Positions 9,227 to 19,723 of a stretch of DNA of 38,397 nt are shown one piece after another. The DNA is from a virus (Duplodnaviria; Caudoviricetes). The notes beneath the pieces are model-generated. The model saw nothing but the letters and a program-made list of their open reading frames with translations. It was not told the DNA's origin and searched no databases. The position numbers and the translations under genes were made by a program. Where the stretch lies: positions 1 through 38,397 of IMG/VR virus record IMGVR_UViG_3300049137_000165. The stretch is one strand, 5' to 3'. The stretch's first letter is position 1, and the number at the start of each line of letters is the position of its first letter.

Positions 9227-11232
9227 CAGGCGGCCTGCCCTTCCCCGGCGCCGCCCTGAGCGGCCTTCCGCAGCTGCTTGCCCCGCTCCTGGATCCGCTC
9301 CCCAAGCGTGGTTGGCTGGCCGTCCGGGGTCAGCAGCGGAGCGCCCTCCAGACGGCGCGCACGGACCTTCCGCATCAGCGCGCCCAGGTCCTCGAACGTG
9401 GCGTCTTCCCGGTTCGCCTCGGTGATGAGGTCCTCCACCGGTTCCACCGCGGTGCCGTCCTCCAGCCACGCCCTGATCTGCTGGCCGAACTCGATACCCG
9501 GCTGCCGAACCACAGCGCCCGTCAACGGCTTCGCCCGCGACTTCGTTACGACCAGGGTGTTCTCCCAGTCCATCGAACCCACGATGTCGAATTCGTACTC
9601 CAGCCCCTCCCGCTGCTCCGGCTTCATCCCGACCTTCTTCGGGACCTGCTTGCCGCGGTCGTTGGTCTCCAGCACGTAGTCGGTCTTCGCCCGCATCGTC
9701 ACGATGACGTGCCCCGGGTAGGCGACCAGCGCCTCGATCATCCGGCGCTCCATCGGGCGGGCTTCCTTCCACCCGCCGAAGCTGTTCCCGCCGAAGCCGC
9801 GCTTCGCCGCCTGGTCGACCTGCTCCAACATGCCGCCGGAACCCGACCAGAAGTGCGACAGGGAGTCGACGATGACGACCTCGTAGCCGGCGGACCCGGC
9901 GGCGGCGAGCGCCTCCACCAGATCGTCAGGGGAGAAGTAGGCGAGCTCCAGGACGTCGAACGCGAACTCGTTGGCGTACTTGCTTGCCGAGCCGCGCTCG
10001 GTGTCAATGACCGCAATACGCGAACCGAGCGCCATCGCGATGGTCAGCGCCGTGTAGGTGTTGTGGGTGACCGCGCAGTGAGCCGTGACGTACAGCCGAT
10101 CCGCAGCATCCACGGAGATGCACTGCACGGGCTTCCGGCCTACCAGCTCCACCTTGTCGATGAACCGGGTGGGCTGGTACTTGGTCCGCGGCCTGTAGGC
10201 GTCTCGCTTTCGCGGCAGCCGGAAGGGAGCCAGCCATCCGGGGAGGCGCAGATGGATCCGGTACGACAGTGCCCCGGTCCTGCTCTCTCCCTTGTGCTGG
10301 TAGCGAGGTGTTCGGGTCGTGACGGTGACAAGTCCGCCAAGCGATTCCACCAGGAAGCGGACCTGGTCGGCGAGGTGCTGCGAGGAGGTGGAGTACTCCA
10401 GCGTGCTGCCGTCGGCATAGCCATCGGTGTCCAGGAGTCCCTGGAGGACTGCAATCCGGGTCTTGGACGTGCCGTAGAGGTACTTCTCCGGGATGAACTT
10501 GTCCGTGGACCTGGTCCCCGCCAACCCGACCTGCCGTACGGCGTCCAAAAGCGGGTTCGGGCCGCTCTGTGCGGTGCGCCGTATCGACACATCGGTGATC
10601 TGGCTGGAGTGCTGCCGAAGCTCCACGCCTTCGGGGAGAAGTGGGGTCACCAGAGCGTGCAGCTCAGGCTCGATGTTGCACAGCCTGACGAAGTGCTCGT
10701 TGAGGTGGCCGTCTCCGAGGAGGACGCCCAGGAGGTAGGGATCGATGGGCAGGGTGTCGTCGGAGTCGAACTCGATGGGCTTGACCAGGGGAATCCTGTG
10801 GTTCCGCTTGCCGTTCCGGTCCAGGAGGGTGGCCGCGATCTCCTTCAGCGGCTTGACGGTACCCGGGCGCTTCGCGGCGGCGTCCAAGTACGTCTGAGTC
10901 AGCCACAGGTGGTCATCGGTGCACTCGACAATGGCACCGTCGTTGAACGTGACTTGGTAGATGGGCTGCTCTCCCTGCGGATAGATGCCCGTGACGAGCG
11001 CGCTTCCGCCATCTGAAGACGTGACGCGGTCTCCGGCCTTGAGGTCGCCCATGTGGCGCCATCCGGTCGGCGTGAGGATCGGCGCGTCCAGTGGCTGAGC
11101 TTTCCCGGATCCTGACGGGCCGTCCAGGGCGACACGCGCCTTGGACTGCTCCTTGGTGGCCGGGGCGAACTGAAAACGGGTGTGAGAGGTCGGACCGCCC
11201 GCGGATGCGGCGGCCTGCGAGGCCGTAGCCAT
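9226..11232 (-). CDS. AAA_24 / Sak4-like phage ATPase (321 aa after splicing) interrupted by an intein
   Basis: RVALDGPSGSGK|TYTAL Walker A split by intein; IAVIDTERGS, VVIVDSLSHFW, HVIVTMRAK, GLEYEFD motifs; GGAG RBS. Confidence 0.85.
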   Translation of the reverse strand: MATASQAAASAGGPTSHTRFQFAPATKEQSKARVALDGPSGSGKAQPLDAPILTPTGWRHMGDLKAGDRVTSSDGGSALVTGIYPQGEQPIYQVTFNDGAIVECTDDHLWLTQTYLDAAAKRPGTVKPLKEIAATLLDRNGKRNHRIPLVKPIEFDSDDTLPIDPYLLGVLLGDGHLNEHFVRLCNIEPELHALVTPLLPEGVELRQHSSQITDVSIRRTAQSGPNPLLDAVRQVGLAGTRSTDKFIPEKYLYGTSKTRIAVLQGLLDTDGYADGSTLEYSTSSQHLADQVRFLVESLGGLVTVTTRTPRYQHKGESRTGALSYRIHLRLPGWLAPFRLPRKRDAYRPRTKYQPTRFIDKVELVGRKPVQCISVDAADRLYVTAHCAVTHNTYTALTIAMALGSRIAVIDTERGSASKYANEFAFDVLELAYFSPDDLVEALAAAGSAGYEVVIVDSLSHFWSGSGGMLEQVDQAAKRGFGGNSFGGWKEARPMERRMIEALVAYPGHVIVTMRAKTDYVLETNDRGKQVPKKVGMKPEQREGLEYEFDIVGSMDWENTLVVTKSRAKPLTGAVVRQPGIEFGQQIRAWLEDGTAVEPVEDLITEANREDATFEDLGALMRKVRARRLEGAPLLTPDGQPTTLGERIQERGKQLRKAAQGGAGEGQAA
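10060..11100 (-). mobile_element. 347-aa intein with LAGLIDADG homing endonuclease, class 3 type
   Basis: Starts AQPLD, ends VTHN|T; block B CTDDHLW; block F VQCISVD; endonuclease motifs YLLGVLLGDG and LQGLLDTDG. Confidence 0.9.
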
Positions 11233-11916: not shown

Positions 11917-12025
11917 AGCATTGTGACGCCATGCCGGGTGTGGCCGGGCGGCCGGGACGCCGTGTCCCAACAACCACAACAGTACGGCACAGAGCATTGC
12001 AGTGCAATGCTTGATGGTCTAGTGT
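11917..12025. promoter_or_regulatory. Divergent promoter region with operators
   Basis: Perfect IR AGCATTGC-agt-GCAATGCT 11993-12011; degenerate copy AGCATTGT-gac-GCCATGCC 11917-11935; candidate rightward promoter TTGCAG(11997)-17 nt-TAGTGT(12020). Confidence 0.6.
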
Positions 12026-12057
12026 TGGAACCACACCGCACCAAGGGGGACACCGCA

Positions 12058-12489
12058 ATGAAGCTGACGGCCAAGCAGAACGTGAAGAACACCCTCGCCG
12101 ACCTGTACCGGAGCATCGACCGACAGCACGCCGTCACCCTCACCTTCGACAAGGAAGAGAAGGACGACAACGGTAAGAAGACCGGCCGCCTCGTCGAAGA
12201 CGTCCGCACCGTGGAGCCGTACGACATCCAGACCACCCTCGCCGGCCACATCGTCATCAAGGCCATGGACCGGCAGACCGGAGAGTCCCGAACCATCCGA
12301 CTGGACCGGGTGCACGCCTACACCCTGCACCGGATTCCGTTCATCATCGAGGTACCCGAGGCAACGACCCCCGCCGGACGCCCCACTGTGGTCCGTAGCG
12401 CCGCCCAGGTCATCGCCCGCGAACTTGGACGCGACTACCTTCCCGCCGCCCGCCGCATCACCCAGACCGACACCCGACTCGCCGCATAG
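12058..12489 (+). CDS. Stand-alone WYL-domain protein
   Basis: RTVEPYDI...IKAMDRQTGESRTIRLDRV matches the WYL core; AAGGGGG RBS before ATG 12058; no HTH or WCX domain. Confidence 0.8.
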   Translation: MKLTAKQNVKNTLADLYRSIDRQHAVTLTFDKEEKDDNGKKTGRLVEDVRTVEPYDIQTTLAGHIVIKAMDRQTGESRTIRLDRVHAYTLHRIPFIIEVPEATTPAGRPTVVRSAAQVIARELGRDYLPAARRITQTDTRLAA

Positions 12490-14242: not shown

Positions 14243-15127
14243 ATGGACGCCGCTACCCTGCTCCGTGACTGGCTGGACACCTCCGCCCTGCGCCCCTCCT
14301 CGCAGGCCGAGTACCAGCGCGAGGTCGGATCCTTCCTCACCTGGTGCCTCGAGCAGAAGCCGCCCATCGACGCGCTGACCGCCCGCCCGAAGGACATCGC
14401 CGCCTGGGCCTACGAGCGCTACCTGCACGAGTACCTGCCCGGCATCCCCTTCCACGGCCCCGACGCCCTCGCCCACCTCGCCGACCAGCACCCGGACGCC
14501 GCCCGTACCCACGACCGGCGCATCACCGCGCTCACCATGTACTTCAAGGCCGCCAAGGACCGCGGCATCATCACCCTCCCCCCGGACCTGAAGCGGCTGC
14601 GCACCGGCGTCAACCGTCCCGCAGGCGCCCGCAACCGGCTGGACGACACCGAACGGGCCGCCCTGTTCACCACCATCGGCGCCTGGGGCCCGCACCGCTC
14701 CAAGCGCTGGCAACGCGACCGACTCGCCGTCTACCTGCTGCTGGAGGGAATGCGGCCCTCGCAGGTGATCCGCCTGGACCGCCGGCACATCTACCCCCAG
14801 CCCGACGGCACCACCCAGGTACGCGCCCCCGACGACCACGAGAGCGTGGGCCGCCAGTTCGTCCTCAACCGCATGACCAGCGCCGCCCTGTCCGCCTACC
14901 AGACGGTCCGCCCCGAACCGGCCGACCCGGAGGAGCACGCGCTGCTGCTCAACAGCCGCCGCGAGCAGCTCCAGTTCCGCTGGGTCAACAAGCTGGTCGG
15001 CGAGATGGTCGCCACCGAGCCCCTCCTGGGCGACCGGGACCCCGCCGTCACCGCGGACACCATCGCCCACACCGGCTTCCTCGACACCCCGGCACCTCCA
15101 ACCGGCCAGGAAATCAGGACATCTTAG
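14243..15127 (+). CDS. Tyrosine-recombinase homologue with degenerate active site
   Basis: SAM-like N-domain (LRPSSQAEYQREVGSFLTW), RDRLAVYLLLEGMRPSQVIRLD box I; box II reads TADTIAHT instead of TPHxLRHT; protein ends before the catalytic Tyr. Confidence 0.75.
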   Translation: MDAATLLRDWLDTSALRPSSQAEYQREVGSFLTWCLEQKPPIDALTARPKDIAAWAYERYLHEYLPGIPFHGPDALAHLADQHPDAARTHDRRITALTMYFKAAKDRGIITLPPDLKRLRTGVNRPAGARNRLDDTERAALFTTIGAWGPHRSKRWQRDRLAVYLLLEGMRPSQVIRLDRRHIYPQPDGTTQVRAPDDHESVGRQFVLNRMTSAALSAYQTVRPEPADPEEHALLLNSRREQLQFRWVNKLVGEMVATEPLLGDRDPAVTADTIAHTGFLDTPAPPTGQEIRTS

Positions 15128-15502: not shown

Positions 15503-16330
15503 TCAGCGTTGCGCGAGCAGGCGAGCCGCGCGCTCCCGGCGCTGCTGCTCCTTGCGTTCCGCGCGGGCGCGGGCGGACTGCTGGCGTGCCTTCTCCCGGG
15601 CTTCTGGTGAGAGGACCCGGGCCACGGTAGCGGGATGCCACTTGCCGCCGCGCTTGCTGGGCAGGCCTTCGGCGTTGGCGCGGGCGGCGATGGCGCGTAC
15701 GCCGAGGCCTTCCTCGTCGCGCCAGCGTTCCATCTGTTCGGCGATGGCGTTCTCCCGCTCGTCGGCGGTGAGTTCCTTGTCGACGGTGCGCTGTCCGAAG
15801 CGGGGGGAGCCGTAGGCGTAGCCGCCGCGGGAGCCCTTGGCGGCGCGGCCTTCGGTGAGGCGTTTGATGATGAGGCCGCGGTCGAGCTGGTGGAAGACGC
15901 CGCGCATTTGGCGCATGGCGGTGCGCATGGGGTCGGAGGCGTCGTCCTCGAGGTGTTCGCCGTGGTCGGCGGTGTAGACGCGGCCGCCGATGGCCCACAC
16001 GTAGGACAGGACGGCTTCCTGGACGGTGAGTTCGCGGGCGAGGCGGTCGAGGTTGGGGGCGAGGATGCCGTCTGCCTGGTCGTCGGCGATCCACTGCATG
16101 GCGGTCATGAGGCCGGGGCGTTCGTCGAGGAGGGTGGTGCCGGACTTGCCGGCCTTGCTGTCTCCGTCGGTGACCATGTGGACGATGCGGACCGGTGGGG
16201 TGGTCTGGGGGGTGGCCCAGCGGCGGCAGTCGGCTTCCTGGGCGTCGAGGCCGTAGCCGTCGACGGCTTGGCCGGCGGTGGAGACGCGGCGGACCAGGAT
16301 GAGGCGTAGCGCGGTGTCGAGCGCGTTCAT
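15503..16330 (-). CDS. Serine recombinase (resolvase catalytic domain plus recombinase DNA-binding domain, no Zn ribbon)
   Basis: RVST..Q, ERPGL, LDRLAR, GSPRFG, RAIAARANAEGLPSKRGGKWHPATVARVL; alternative start 16369. Confidence 0.9.
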   Translation of the reverse strand: MNALDTALRLILVRRVSTAGQAVDGYGLDAQEADCRRWATPQTTPPVRIVHMVTDGDSKAGKSGTTLLDERPGLMTAMQWIADDQADGILAPNLDRLARELTVQEAVLSYVWAIGGRVYTADHGEHLEDDASDPMRTAMRQMRGVFHQLDRGLIIKRLTEGRAAKGSRGGYAYGSPRFGQRTVDKELTADERENAIAEQMERWRDEEGLGVRAIAARANAEGLPSKRGGKWHPATVARVLSPEAREKARQQSARARAERKEQQRRERAARLLAQR

Positions 16331-16399
16331 GATCTGATCGTAGACCGGTGCGTGAACAACTATGCCCATAGATGTAACACCGCATCATCCGGGGCCGCC

Positions 16400-16832: not shown

Positions 16833-17117
16833 TCAGTGCTTCCACTCGGGCAGGAAGTCGGGGTGGTCGCTCCACTGTCGGGCCGCGATGGTCAGGTAGA
16901 AGTGCGGCATGCTCGGGTTGTCGCCGCGTTCGATCTCCGCCTGGGCGGCTCCCTTGATGACGGTCGCCATGTCGAGCAGGGCTTGATGGGGTCGTTCATC
17001 GGTGGAGCCGTACGGGATGGCGTCGCGCAGGGGCGTGACGCGGGCCTTGATGAAGGCGATCACCTTATCGATGTCGTCCATCGTCTTGTCGGGCGGCGGC
17101 ATGTAGGCGTCGGGCAC
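16833..17117 (-). CDS. Hypothetical protein (94 aa)
   Basis: C-terminal AARQWSDHPDFLPEW resembles DUF6221-type Streptomyces phage proteins; good GC3 bias. Confidence 0.65.
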   Translation of the reverse strand: MPDAYMPPPDKTMDDIDKVIAFIKARVTPLRDAIPYGSTDERPHQALLDMATVIKGAAQAEIERGDNPSMPHFYLTIAARQWSDHPDFLPEWKH

Positions 17118-17157
17118 GGCATGTGAGCTTATCGCGCCTCACGGACCGTCAGATTCT

Positions 17158-17457
17158 TCACTCAGAGCGATTCTCCGGTGAAGCAGCGTCTTCGGGCTCG
17201 GCGCGCTTCCCGGTCGTCCGCCCCTCGGCGATCTGCTGGGCCCGAGCCCGGCTGACGCCCAGTTCCTTGCCGACCTCGGCGTGGCTCATCCCATCGCCGC
17301 GCATCTCCCGTACGGCGTACTGCCGGATCTCGCGCAGCCAGTGCTGTAGCTCCGGGATCGCTTGGAGGGCTGTGCTGACGTCCTTGGCGCGCTGGACGGG
17401 ATCTCCTTGTTCGGCAAGGTGCTTGAGGTTCTCGAAGGGGGGTGGTGGCGTCGTCAT
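17158..17457 (-). CDS. HTH DNA-binding protein (sigma-70 region-4-like), probably leaderless
   Basis: GMSHAEVGKELGVSRARAQQI; -10-like TACACT 6 nt before ATG on the minus strand. Confidence 0.8.
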   Translation of the reverse strand: MTTPPPPFENLKHLAEQGDPVQRAKDVSTALQAIPELQHWLREIRQYAVREMRGDGMSHAEVGKELGVSRARAQQIAEGRTTGKRAEPEDAASPENRSE

Positions 17458-17478
17458 GGACTCAGTGTAGGGGGAGGG

Positions 17479-17508
17479 TTGACATCACGTAAGGGGATCC
17501 CTTACATT
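17479..17508 (+). promoter_or_regulatory. Sigma-70/HrdB-type promoter overlapped by a palindromic operator
   Basis: TTGACA 17479-17484, 18-nt spacer, TACATT 17503-17508; IR GTAAGGG-gat-CCCTTAC 17489-17505. Confidence 0.75.
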
Positions 17509-17513
17509 CGAGG

Positions 17514-17901
17514 TGTCGGGGCAACCCGGCAACAACTCCACAGAGGGCGAAGCGGAACCCGGGCGGTGTGTCGAAAGGCGCACCACACACAGTGGCCAAC
17601 CCGGGGTGAGCGCGATCATAAGGCTCTGTCGTCGACCGTGGACTGTTCGGTCATCTTGGGAAAGTTCCCCGGCGGCAAAGATCTTCAAGTGAAGGTTCGG
17701 TCCGTTCCGATCCCGCTGAGAAAGTTGCTTCGCTCTCTGTGGGGTCCGACAACTCCACAGAGAGCAGACCTCCCGTGAGTGCTGGCTTCACGGGCGTAAC
17801 CATGGGACAGGCGGCGCTGAAGAGGGCGCGGAGAGCACCCGACGGATTAAATCCCCTCGAAGACAACGCATTACCCGCCATGGCAGTTCTGCTCTCTGTG
17901 G
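17514..17901 (+). ncRNA. Putative structured ncRNA: 5' GNRA hairpin plus two tandem modules each closed by a related long stem
   Basis: 21-bp stem 17535-17555 / 17725-17745 (4 G-U); 14-bp stem 17755-17768 / 17888-17901; repeat ACAACTCCACAGAG at 17532 and 17749; GCAA and GAAA tetraloops; begins just after the promoter; no credible ORF. Confidence 0.7.
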
Positions 17902-17929
17902 TCCCAAAGAGACCAGTCAGGAGGATCCG

Positions 17930-18250
17930 ATGCCGCGCATGAGCAAGGAAGAGGAAGACCTCCTGTCGATCGAGCAGTTCGGCTCGGACGTCCAGGGTGT
18001 GTACGACCGCTTCTCCACCGCACTGGACGCGCAAGGCGTTCCCCACCGCTACTACGGCTTCAACAACGGCGGCTCGGCCACGGACAAGCAGAAGAACTTC
18101 CTGCGCTCGCTCCTGCGCAAGCACGCCGGCACCGAGACGGCTGAGGCCATCCGGAACTACTTCAACTGCCGCCGCGTGACCCACGAACCGATCAGCTTCG
18201 GCGAAGTCTCCGACTCCATCCAGGCGCTCAAGAACCTCAAGGAGGACTGA
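17930..18250 (+). CDS. Small protein with ATxKQ...S..E.S..I..L helical motif (DUF3072-like)
   Basis: AGGAGG RBS; ATDKQKNFLRSLL...ISFGEVSDSIQALK; strong codon bias. Confidence 0.75.
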   Translation: MPRMSKEEEDLLSIEQFGSDVQGVYDRFSTALDAQGVPHRYYGFNNGGSATDKQKNFLRSLLRKHAGTETAEAIRNYFNCRRVTHEPISFGEVSDSIQALKNLKED

Positions 18251-18286
18251 CCGTCATCGTACGTACGCGCGACCACGGCCGCCGGA

Positions 18287-19723
18287 TCAGGTCCAGGTAC
18301 CGGGCGAACCCGCTGTCGTGCACAAGTGCCAGGCCCCGGCGGAGTCCAGGACCACATCACCCGCCGCCCACGCGCCCGTCGTCGGTGCGCCCGCCGTAGC
18401 CTTGAACCCGGCCAGGCGGATATTCGTCAGGCCGTTCTTCTTGCCCAGCCCGGCAACGCCGGTGGTGGCGTCCAGGTCGTGGATGTTGTCGTACGGGCTG
18501 GTGCCGATCTGTACGCGGCCGATCAGGTGCGGGCCCGCCGCCTCCCACCGCATCAACGCCTTCTGCGTGCCTGTGAAATCGGCGTTGGCCCAGTGGGAGA
18601 CGATGCAGTCCAGTCCTGCAACCTCAAGGTCCAGGCCGCCGCCGGTGGTGCGGAACCGGTACGCGCCGAGGCTTCCCGGGGTGTCCCGGCTGACGGTCAG
18701 GTTGTCGCCGACGACGTTGACCGGGCCGGTGGAGTTGACGCCGTTCAGCCATGCGGTGCCCTGCTCGATCGCTGCCACCCGGGTCAGGCAGTCGTTGAGG
18801 AAGACGTCAATGTTGGACACGATGGTGATGGTGGCGAACTGGCCGGTCGCCCAGGCGCGGTCGCCGTGCGGATCGGTCGCTCCGGAGTGGTCGGTGACCT
18901 TGCTGGTGGCGCCTGCGGTCGTCTCCAGGGCGGTGGTGTCCGGGATGCCGTGGACGTCGGTGGTGTCGGCCGCGTGCGCGGTGACGGCCGTCGTGGCGGT
19001 GCCTGCTGGGTCGGCGCCGATCGTGGCCGGGGTGATCGGGTCTGTGCCGCCGGTGGCGTGGGAGGCGGCGTGCGCGGTGGGTGTGCGCGGGTTGGTGGTG
19101 GTCGGGTCGGTGGAGCGCAGCGCGATATCCGCGCCCGCACCGGCAGAGCCGAGTTCGGGCTGCGGTCCCTCGGGTCCGGTGGCGCCCTGCGGGCCGACCA
19201 GCGACGCCAACCACTGCGCCTCGCTGCCGACGAACCCCTCCGTGACGGCGACCTCGTAGGCGCTGTCCCCGTCCTCGCCATCCTCACCATCCTGGCCGTC
19301 CGGTCCCGCGGCCCCCGCCGGGCCCGTGGGACCGGTGGCGCCCTGCGGGCCCGGCAGATAGACGACAGTTCCGCCGCCAGTGATGGTGTCCGTCAGGTCG
19401 GCGCGGATCTCCCCAGCCCAGTACGGTCCCCCGGTCGCCGGCACCACCACGTAGGTGTTGATCGGTGTGCCGTCCTTCGCGCGGCCCTCCTGGATCGCCC
19501 ACAGCGTGTCCCCCGCATCGGACTCGATGAGCGAGTTCGCGGTCAGCACGGCCGACCAGTCCCCGTCGCTGTCGGGGGTGATGGGGACGGGGCGTACCAG
19601 CTCGCCGGGCACGCTGGCCACGTAGCCGACCGCGTCCTTGCCGGTGACGTCGACCAGGAAGGCCTTCATCTCCACCCGCTGCGGACTCGCCGCCCCGATC
19701 AACTTCCCGGTCACCGTGGTCAT
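18287..19723 (-). CDS. Tail fibre / minor structural protein with collagen-like repeats
   Basis: Gly-X-Y runs, GDSAYEVAV..GFVGSEAQWLASLVGPQG, HAASHATGGTDP and DPHG motifs; AGGAG RBS. Confidence 0.75.
   Translation of the reverse strand: MTTVTGKLIGAASPQRVEMKAFLVDVTGKDAVGYVASVPGELVRPVPITPDSDGDWSAVLTANSLIESDAGDTLWAIQEGRAKDGTPINTYVVVPATGGPYWAGEIRADLTDTITGGGTVVYLPGPQGATGPTGPAGAAGPDGQDGEDGEDGDSAYEVAVTEGFVGSEAQWLASLVGPQGATGPEGPQPELGSAGAGADIALRSTDPTTTNPRTPTAHAASHATGGTDPITPATIGADPAGTATTAVTAHAADTTDVHGIPDTTALETTAGATSKVTDHSGATDPHGDRAWATGQFATITIVSNIDVFLNDCLTRVAAIEQGTAWLNGVNSTGPVNVVGDNLTVSRDTPGSLGAYRFRTTGGGLDLEVAGLDCIVSHWANADFTGTQKALMRWEAAGPHLIGRVQIGTSPYDNIHDLDATTGVAGLGKKNGLTNIRLAGFKATAGAPTTGAWAAGDVVLDSAGAWHLCTTAGSPGTWT

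Follow-up and report, generated by a model that had tools for sequence, protein, structure and literature searches.

Unrelated structured RNAs in a shared clamp resembling the ribosomal RNA stalk, carried at a putative accessory slot of Streptomyces phages

The DNA analysed here, called the window, is a 38,397-base virus record from a GC-rich temperate phage that carries integrases, ParA-like and WhiB-like genes and a tail-lysis block. The subject of this work is an RNA locus at the end of the tail block. Two different RNA modules, each closed by a terminal stem of the same type (the clamp), lie between a promoter and an open reading frame (ORF) of 106 amino acids (aa); a gene for a small helix-turn-helix (HTH) protein is divergent from the promoter, and a convergent tail gene ends 37 bases past the ORF (Table 1). 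The promoter is the one promoter-like site between 17100 and 18400, where shuffled sequences gave a mean of 0.1, and no terminator was found on the + strand of the RNA region. A sequence-only reading of this DNA had placed the promoter, palindrome, hairpin, both stems, ribosome-binding site (RBS), ORF and divergent HTH gene, and all of these coordinates were correct on recheck.

Table 1. Features of the RNA locus, in window coordinates (L numbers denote other loci)
Feature	Position	Strand	Remark
HTH gene, 99 aa, putative autorepressor	17158..17457	-	phrog_686 HTH, E 1.7e-8; divergent from promoter
Sigma-70-type promoter: -35 17479-17484, -10 17503-17508	17479..17508	+	Kept in homologous loci
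Palindrome, candidate operator in promoter spacer, overlaps -10	17489..17505	.	Kept at every examined locus with window-type HTH
5' leader hairpin, GNRA-type loop	17514..17531	+	Counterpart before clamp in L013, L016, L018, L046
RNA module 1 (family B): unpaired 5' tail, 21-bp clamp 17535-17555/17725-17745, two-domain interior	17532..17745	+	Homologues L018, L039, L019
RNA of 175-177 nt predicted to be cut from module 1 by RNase III	17553..17729 (17553/4-17728/9)	+	Consensus geometry
Long-range pseudoknot predicted in module 1, pairing 17588-17593 with loop 17642-17647 (hairpin 17634-38/17648-52)	17588..17647	+	
RNA module 2 (family A): common 5' 14-mer, 14-bp clamp 17755-17768/17888-17901	17749..17901	+	Homologues L001, L002, L013, L025, L016
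Invariant loops 17779-87 and 17832-38 of module 2, candidate 5-bp kissing pair	17779..17838	+	Shuffle p = 0.06
Shine-Dalgarno sequence, beyond clamp	17919..17924	+	
All-helical accessory protein of 106 aa, with a DUF3072-like three-helix module at the C-terminus (about residues 46-104)	17930..18250	+	Predicted model, pLDDT (predicted local distance difference test) 90.8

Homologues were searched for with the ORF, the HTH protein, interior motifs and the 14-mer at the 5' side of the clamp. With the window included, 16 clamped modules of 153-286 nt were collected from 14 phage, prophage or metagenome loci, the sources being Streptomyces records, a Nonomuraea-linked phage and viral or metagenome contigs. 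Their interiors form family A (module 2 type, n=6), family B (module 1 type, n=4), family C (n=4) and two singletons, namely L010 and the first module of L016. BLAST joins no two of these groups, finds no similarity between the interiors of modules 1 and 2, and misses even the membership of window module 1 in family B. A covariance model of family B scores this module at 96.9 bits and does not match L010.

Compensatory changes in homologues, which had been set as a test beforehand, are present in both window modules. Both sides change in 11 of 49 pairs of family A, where 99% of cells pair, none of 500 shuffles equals this count and slid controls reach at most 2, and in 12 of 48 pairs of family B (0/500 shuffles, slid controls at most 3); because the samples are small (four to six) and related, these figures are not probabilities. 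For family C the count is 17 of 52 predicted pairs, without a shuffle control and with an alignment whose 3' half is poor. All three families are conserved as RNA structures. The lengths of homologues (153, 157 and 158 nt; 211, 218, 271 and 286 nt) do not differ by triplets, so the modules are not coding. The proposal of two unrelated structured RNAs on the + strand is thus borne out by covariation in both modules and by interiors that BLAST does not link.

Folding strength contributes little to this. Against shuffles, the folding z-score was -4.33 for module 1 and -3.00 for module 2; both modules together gave -3.83 on the + strand and -2.20 on the - strand. When the clamp is removed, the interiors fold no better than shuffles (z -0.87 and -0.21, respectively), that of module 2 folds better on the - strand than on the + strand, and an interior z below -2 occurs in only 2 of the 16 modules. 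The z-scores therefore come from the clamp, and the case for structure rests on covariation. The + strand, argued earlier from G-U pairs, is probably correct, judging from the direction of the promoter and one-sided changes to G-U (six pairs of family B vary on one side, to G-U); folding strength belongs to the clamp and drops out of the strand argument.

The stem of module 1 has 21 pairs, four of them G-U, and that of module 2 has 14 perfect pairs. All six pairs of the module 1 pseudoknot can form in L018 and L039, with one compensatory change; five of six form in the window and three of six in L019. The hairpin that supplies the loop shows compensatory changes in four of its five pairs. In the module 1 homologues, the segment at about 17611-17617 pairs long-range with 17709-17715 (helix 6), in the region of a GAGC/GCTC stem that had been proposed as local; the proposed stems TGTCGTCG/CGGCGGCA and GATCTTC/GAAGGTT are candidate helices. 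Module 2 contains the helices 17772-79/17787-94, 17800-05/17878-83 and 17822-26/17854-58. Its two marked loops offer no covariation evidence because they are invariant in all six family members, and a kissing pair between them is suggestive only. The 3' arm of module 1 can also pair with the 5' arm of module 2 (17732-17765; 14 bp, 6-nt loop); this is an alternative fold of tandem cassettes, and the minimum-energy fold keeps the modules separate.

No known RNA family was recognised, in agreement with the initial impression: Rfam 15 gave no match in the window (best E 2.3 on 17440-17960) and none for the modules of 12 other loci. Visual resemblances to RNase P, hammerhead, lysine riboswitch, signal recognition particle (SRP) Alu, pistol and kink-turn (K-turn) RNAs were dropped for lack of Rfam support, and at the supposed K-turn site covariation fixes a plain Watson-Crick register. 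The family A model found one copy, or one tandem pair, in each of three genomes tested. With few candidates scored per genome, it found no chromosomal homologue in 151 host genomes, a result that means 'not found' only (it recovered three of three known carriers as a positive control, with laxer filters); the family B model, scored under the same limit, found homologues in two of the 151, both previously known. Neither a family B interior lacking the clamp nor, in GenBank phages and PLSDB plasmids, any homologue of a module or of the ORF was found. All seven matches to the junction pattern in viral contigs are chance. A clamp scan of metagenomes gave 54 loci with one full module (L093) and one cut by the contig end (L052), the remainder being unclamped.

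Two further RNA motifs were seen in carriers. Family A (window 17827-17841) and the unrelated L010 module (L125:2296-2317) both contain a hairpin with an AGAGCA loop; the loop could be a displayed decoy motif, and such hairpins are not enriched in five carrier elements. Downstream of the family C module of L026, Rfam gave three matches over its cut-off to type II hammerhead ribozymes (L026:2023-2086, 2271-2336 and 2773-2836; G007:C9), each after a small gene, and the L026 transcript appears to be built to be cut into single-gene pieces. A motif search found no hammerheads in four other carriers.

The clamp is the constant part of these modules. The 5' 14-mer, which takes in the unpaired tail, is the same in 15 of 16 modules and has one base changed in L108. 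All scans together gave 68 distinct matches to the 14-mer, of which nine have a partner stem of 12-19 bp and 59 one of at most 6 bp (the degenerate L019 module, with one mismatch, is counted here); none falls at 7-11 bp, and this gap argues that the clamp is not chance. A scan of 401 genomes of the genus gave 17 matches to the 14-mer, in 15 genomes, versus 4 for a reversed control. Ten of the 14 modules outside the window were found through a flanking protein or interior motif, with the clamp unused, and all ten carry it.

The clamp had been likened to the stem around Streptomyces pre-16S rRNA. This likeness holds in both rrn operons that were fetched and extends to pre-23S rRNA: in both stalks an AACT-nn-ACAG arm is paired to a CTGT arm. 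The same pairing encloses a folded RNA in 15 of the 16 modules, with one mismatch in L019. The clamp keeps the inner part of the host stalk, and this part covaries. Pairing through the boxA part, 5' of ACAG, is found in the host stalks; among the modules only the first of each tandem cassette extends in this way, by 2-3 bp. Since the TTTG core of boxA is missing upstream in all 16 clamped modules and AACT is mostly unpaired, the modules are not full boxA sites, and the idea that they recruit Nus factors lost its footing. The resemblance does not reach the interiors: comparison of 14 modules with the two rrn operons matched only short chance words.

Copies of the 14-mer without a clamp were also seen. 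Those in the Streptomyces genomes L021, L022, L027 and L032 (about position 1500 in each) have a fuller boxA-like core upstream, including TTTG in L021, L022 and L027, and are possibly the ancestral antitermination signal of the clamp. The L022 copy adjoins a tRNA-gene lookalike (by eye) on the opposite strand. L035 (G004:C205:4425 and 5706) has two unclamped copies with the same hairpin before and an RBS directly after, a repeated leader motif. From L037:2967 onward (G002:C29:76966), in the same 95-kb element as the module of L001, an unclamped 14-mer leads to a tRNA-shaped sequence with large insertions (by eye; Rfam has no match). A 15-nt word stands three times before small genes around the L001 module (G002:C29 near 87190, 88490 and 88720).

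The promoter side of the locus has a distribution of its own. Homologues of the window HTH protein, 75-81% identical, are found at four RNA-bearing loci, and relatives at seven loci lacking the RNA. The palindrome overlapping the promoter, proposed earlier as an operator, is conserved: palindrome and promoter recur in all nine viral loci with a window-type repressor, and also in L016 and L018. A module is present at two of the nine; the other seven lead directly to an RBS and an unrelated gene. In L114-L120 this arrangement precedes seven different small genes. The window-type HTH gene, promoter and palindrome thus appear to be a general autoregulated accessory slot of Streptomyces phages, mostly without RNA, in which the HTH protein very probably represses the slot promoter via the palindrome. 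The description of the locus as a repressor-controlled cassette overstated the tie to the RNA, the slot usually holding none. Elsewhere a module has only a bare promoter before it, or the window-type repressor is replaced by a different small divergent gene with GCCAAC-type repeats in its promoter (L010, L039, L093, L108).

Module number and content differ between phages, as had been suspected: one or two modules are present, drawn from families A, B, C and the singletons. Tandem modules occur in 2 of 14 loci, the window and L016, which hold two different RNAs each, the second alike and the first different. The ORF family follows a module at 9 of 13 loci, with L108 as a tenth, and does so after families A, B and C and at both singleton-bearing loci; modules of all three families are found before unrelated genes as well (L013, L025, L039, L046). 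Among nine loci found through the protein, seven carry a module and two (L109, L110) encode longer homologues without RNA. Modules always lie between promoter and first gene, 21-33 nt ahead of the start codon, and apart from the ORF the window has in common with four other carriers just a few genes (lysis, tail, unknown). Because RNA family, gene and repressor recombine freely, the RNA appears to be a cargo in its own right, moved horizontally.

Nothing marks the 106-aa protein as a toxin or RNA partner. It has 15 close matches, itself included, and none to a family of Pfam, NCBIfam or PADLOC. Fifty relatives came from a profile search; of 31 distant ones scanned, 11 carry DUF6011 and one matches DUF3072 below the cut-off. 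The likeness to DUF3072 is an Atlas lead (0.79), and the ORF itself has no Pfam match over the cut-off. Its predicted model has no Foldseek match at E 0.001, and the best VIA match (Z 5.0) is a designed helical bundle, which shows neither a known nor a new fold.

How the RNAs may leave the transcript was examined through the clamp. The RNase III consensus used is that of Escherichia coli and is called weak by its source (PMC4357697). Its outer boxes WNAGWG/CWCUNW, on a helix of at least 11 bp, match the clamp core in 16 of 16 5' arms and 15 of 16 3' arms, 5 of the 16 modules having first been found by a pattern containing that box. Consensus geometry predicts a product of 117-119 nt for module 2, besides that listed for module 1. 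In a soil metatranscriptome (X1, the one RNA run listed, with 7% of words), one 176-nt contig of depth 3.3 aligns over 172 nt to 17555-17726 with five differences. Both of its ends lie about 2 nt or less from the predicted cuts, and it lacks both clamp arms; the fit is striking but weak. The rest of 17100-18300 is uncovered, and for module 2 and the ORF this gap is no proof by itself. In S. coelicolor, rnc mutants accumulate 30S precursor (PMC10126417). Release by RNase III, as first proposed, draws weak support from the outer boxes and this contig; we consider it rather likely that the host enzyme cuts the inner end of each clamp and so frees the RNAs.

These observations can be combined in one scheme. 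A single transcript would start at about 17514 and contain the hairpin, module 1, module 2 and the ORF, with the HTH protein repressing its promoter through the palindrome. RNase III (AbsB) would read the clamp and cut near its inner end, giving RNAs of 175-177 and 117-119 nt. The freed RNAs would be stable, compact and pseudoknotted, and would act in trans by titrating an RNA-binding protein of host defence or of a rival phage, not by pairing with mRNA. Phage conflict genes typically come as varied, exchangeable cargo in a slot under repressor control, and roles as antitoxin, antisense RNA, riboswitch or antitermination signal are disfavoured; together, these points suggest protein-binding decoys. 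The riboswitch role lacks its features, the RBS lying 17 nt beyond the clamp with no terminator on the + strand, and the convergent gene 37 bases past the ORF leaves little to antiterminate. We give the whole chain, that is, swappable RNA cargo of an autoregulated slot, freed by RNase III to work in trans as protein-binding decoys, a probability of roughly 0.45. A wider version is doubtful: the rRNA-stalk handle would let the host nuclease mature any folded RNA, and each RNA would inhibit, or serve as decoy for, a different RNA-binding protein of defence or rival phage. It is likewise tentative that such RNAs form a plug-in arsenal swapped like anti-defence proteins in the same repressor-controlled slot.

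Several observations weigh against release by RNase III and the decoy role. The inner boxes CWU/AWG of the consensus are met at only 0-2 of 3 positions per arm, and the clamp, with its unpaired 5' tail, is almost without variation, more so than RNase III would demand. The X1 contig is single, of low depth and given without strand, true ends or a silent-stretch control; it may be DNA carry-over, and a hairpin could halt reads or assembly at the same place. The S. coelicolor enzyme cleaves at internal loops, and its sites are not those of the E. coli enzyme (PMC10126417). Differential RNA sequencing placed a possible RNase III site at +52 past 16S, the partner cut being unseen (PMC4681348); the clamp-like stalk arm sits about 160-190 nt after 16S, not at +52. 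A role in 16S maturation is confirmed by PMC12096830. The decoy role itself is argued from context and exclusion.

The invariance of the clamp would suit a stem that stays uncut and is the binding site of one shared host or phage protein, the whole module being a ribonucleoprotein scaffold, as the terminal stem of Y RNA binds Ro. In its favour, the constancy of the 5' 14-mer with its tail (15 of 16 modules) goes beyond what the weak RNase III consensus asks for, yet the sole X1 contig lacks both clamp arms, and the few genes that the window shares with four carriers include no common partner. Families of Ro, RNA ligase and Cas proteins were absent among 79 selected proteins of three carriers, as were reverse transcriptases, also absent among 71 neighbouring proteins of 12 loci, and we regard the scaffold as unlikely. 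Rather unlikely too is a role in cis, as 5' leaders altering RNA polymerase or adjusting the stability or translation of the next gene, for which nut and put sites and the RNase III-cut leader of lambda N are precedents. The constant position from promoter to first gene, a 5' tail equal to the 3' half of a host boxA-like motif (with the fuller unclamped copies in L021, L022, L027 and L032) and the run of small genes downstream in L001, L002 and L026 all fit a leader. The absent TTTG core, the lack of a terminator, the convergent gene directly past the ORF and an RBS outside the structure do not; moreover, the same promoter drives genes without a module at seven of nine loci, and a single leader function needs neither several folds nor tandem pairs.

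Antisense immunity RNAs like P1 c4 and P4 CI, which had been put forward, and regulatory small RNAs like DicF would pair with phage or host mRNAs once processed; either role now looks improbable. The longest word shared by an interior and its own element, on either strand, is 11-13 nt and not longer than in shuffles in six of six tests, which are blind to 7-8 nt seeds and take the own element as the only target; ARAGORN made no tRNA-like call and Rfam no C4 call, and the invariant loops are short and apparently used in tertiary pairs. The position of the modules, an optional insert with inverted ends between promoter and RBS, would be natural for a selfish insertion resembling a miniature inverted-repeat transposable element or an intron. 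This is very improbable given one copy or one tandem pair per genome (three genomes, family A model; none in 151 others), flanks without duplication, interiors that covary as RNA with G-U pairs and no joint in X1 (one contig only). An RNA antitoxin or cognate cofactor of the 106-aa protein, following type III toxin-antitoxin logic, was also suggested, and the frequent company of ORF and module (9 of 13 loci plus L108; 7 of 9 protein-found loci) is in its favour. It is hardly credible, because RNA class and gene combine freely: the one protein family follows A, B, C and singletons, the three RNA families stand before unrelated genes, and L109 and L110 do without the RNA; tandem repeats, a terminator and a Pfam, NCBIfam or PADLOC family are lacking as well.

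Swappable, RNase III-released decoys would still differ from the known systems to which they come nearest. Actinobacterial pre-16S and pre-23S stalks (boxA, RNase III/AbsB pathway) also enclose a large folded RNA between AACT-nn-ACAG and CTGT arms, whereas the modules are phage-borne, have clamps of 13-21 bp with AACT mostly unpaired and the boxA core missing, and enclose 120-250 nt without similarity to rRNA. DicF, from the dicBF operon of the E. coli Qin prophage, is likewise a prophage RNA that RNase III helps to mature from a repressor-controlled polycistronic transcript (PMC5069750); DicF, however, is short, Hfq-bound and antisense, and the modules are larger covarying folds in one clamp, with no Rfam match and no target word. 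In the Bacillus subtilis scRNA precursor, RNase III makes the mature 5' end within a terminal stem (PMC4838370), but this is a chromosomal SRP RNA of one fold and the modules have no SRP match.

Racr RNA anti-CRISPRs are phage non-coding RNAs that act as protein decoys (PMC10651486). They are solitary mimics of CRISPR repeats, in contrast to multibranch modules of 120-250 nt, which match no CRISPR-repeat family in Rfam, a database that holds only some repeats. The RNAs of P1/P7 c4, P4 CI and type III toxin-antitoxin systems are phage-associated structured RNAs made from a precursor, and unlike them the modules have no cloverleaf or C4 match, repeat array, terminator, toxin family or fixed partner gene; the ORF matches no RNase family of the ToxN/AbiQ/CptN/TenpN type, and no tandem near-identical RNA repeats are present. 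A small HTH gene with an operator over the promoter resembles Aca control. The modules are a member of none of these systems, each of which failed or left open a defining feature. Literature searches returned only unrelated mammalian papers for the clamp 12-mer and nothing matching for structured RNAs or RNA decoys of Streptomyces phages; the supplement of PMC10690425 had no clamp in the six files searched, and three further files outside the search could hold modules.

Other parts of the window code for a ParA-like protein (588-1409), a 668-aa protein (9229-11232) with a primase/terminase-like N-terminal and an AAA_24 C-terminal part, and a WYL-like protein (11923-12489; PADLOC WYL model, E 2.6e-6). 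A tyrosine-integrase-like gene (14243-15127, +) adjoins a serine recombinase (15503-16369, -).

Phage RNAs matured by host nucleases have so far been known singly, as DicF, c4 and CI. A shared maturation handle on several unrelated folds, shuffled among unrelated phages, would be a modular design for which no description was found, and the outcome is three new covarying RNA families with a 14-nt tag to find more. If the RNAs are decoys, RNA-based counter-defence would be widened past CRISPR mimics and tRNAs, and this in the genus from which most antibiotics come. If the plug-in arsenal holds, the clamp would serve as a tag to look for an entire class of RNA effectors, and as an expression handle for structured RNAs in Streptomyces.

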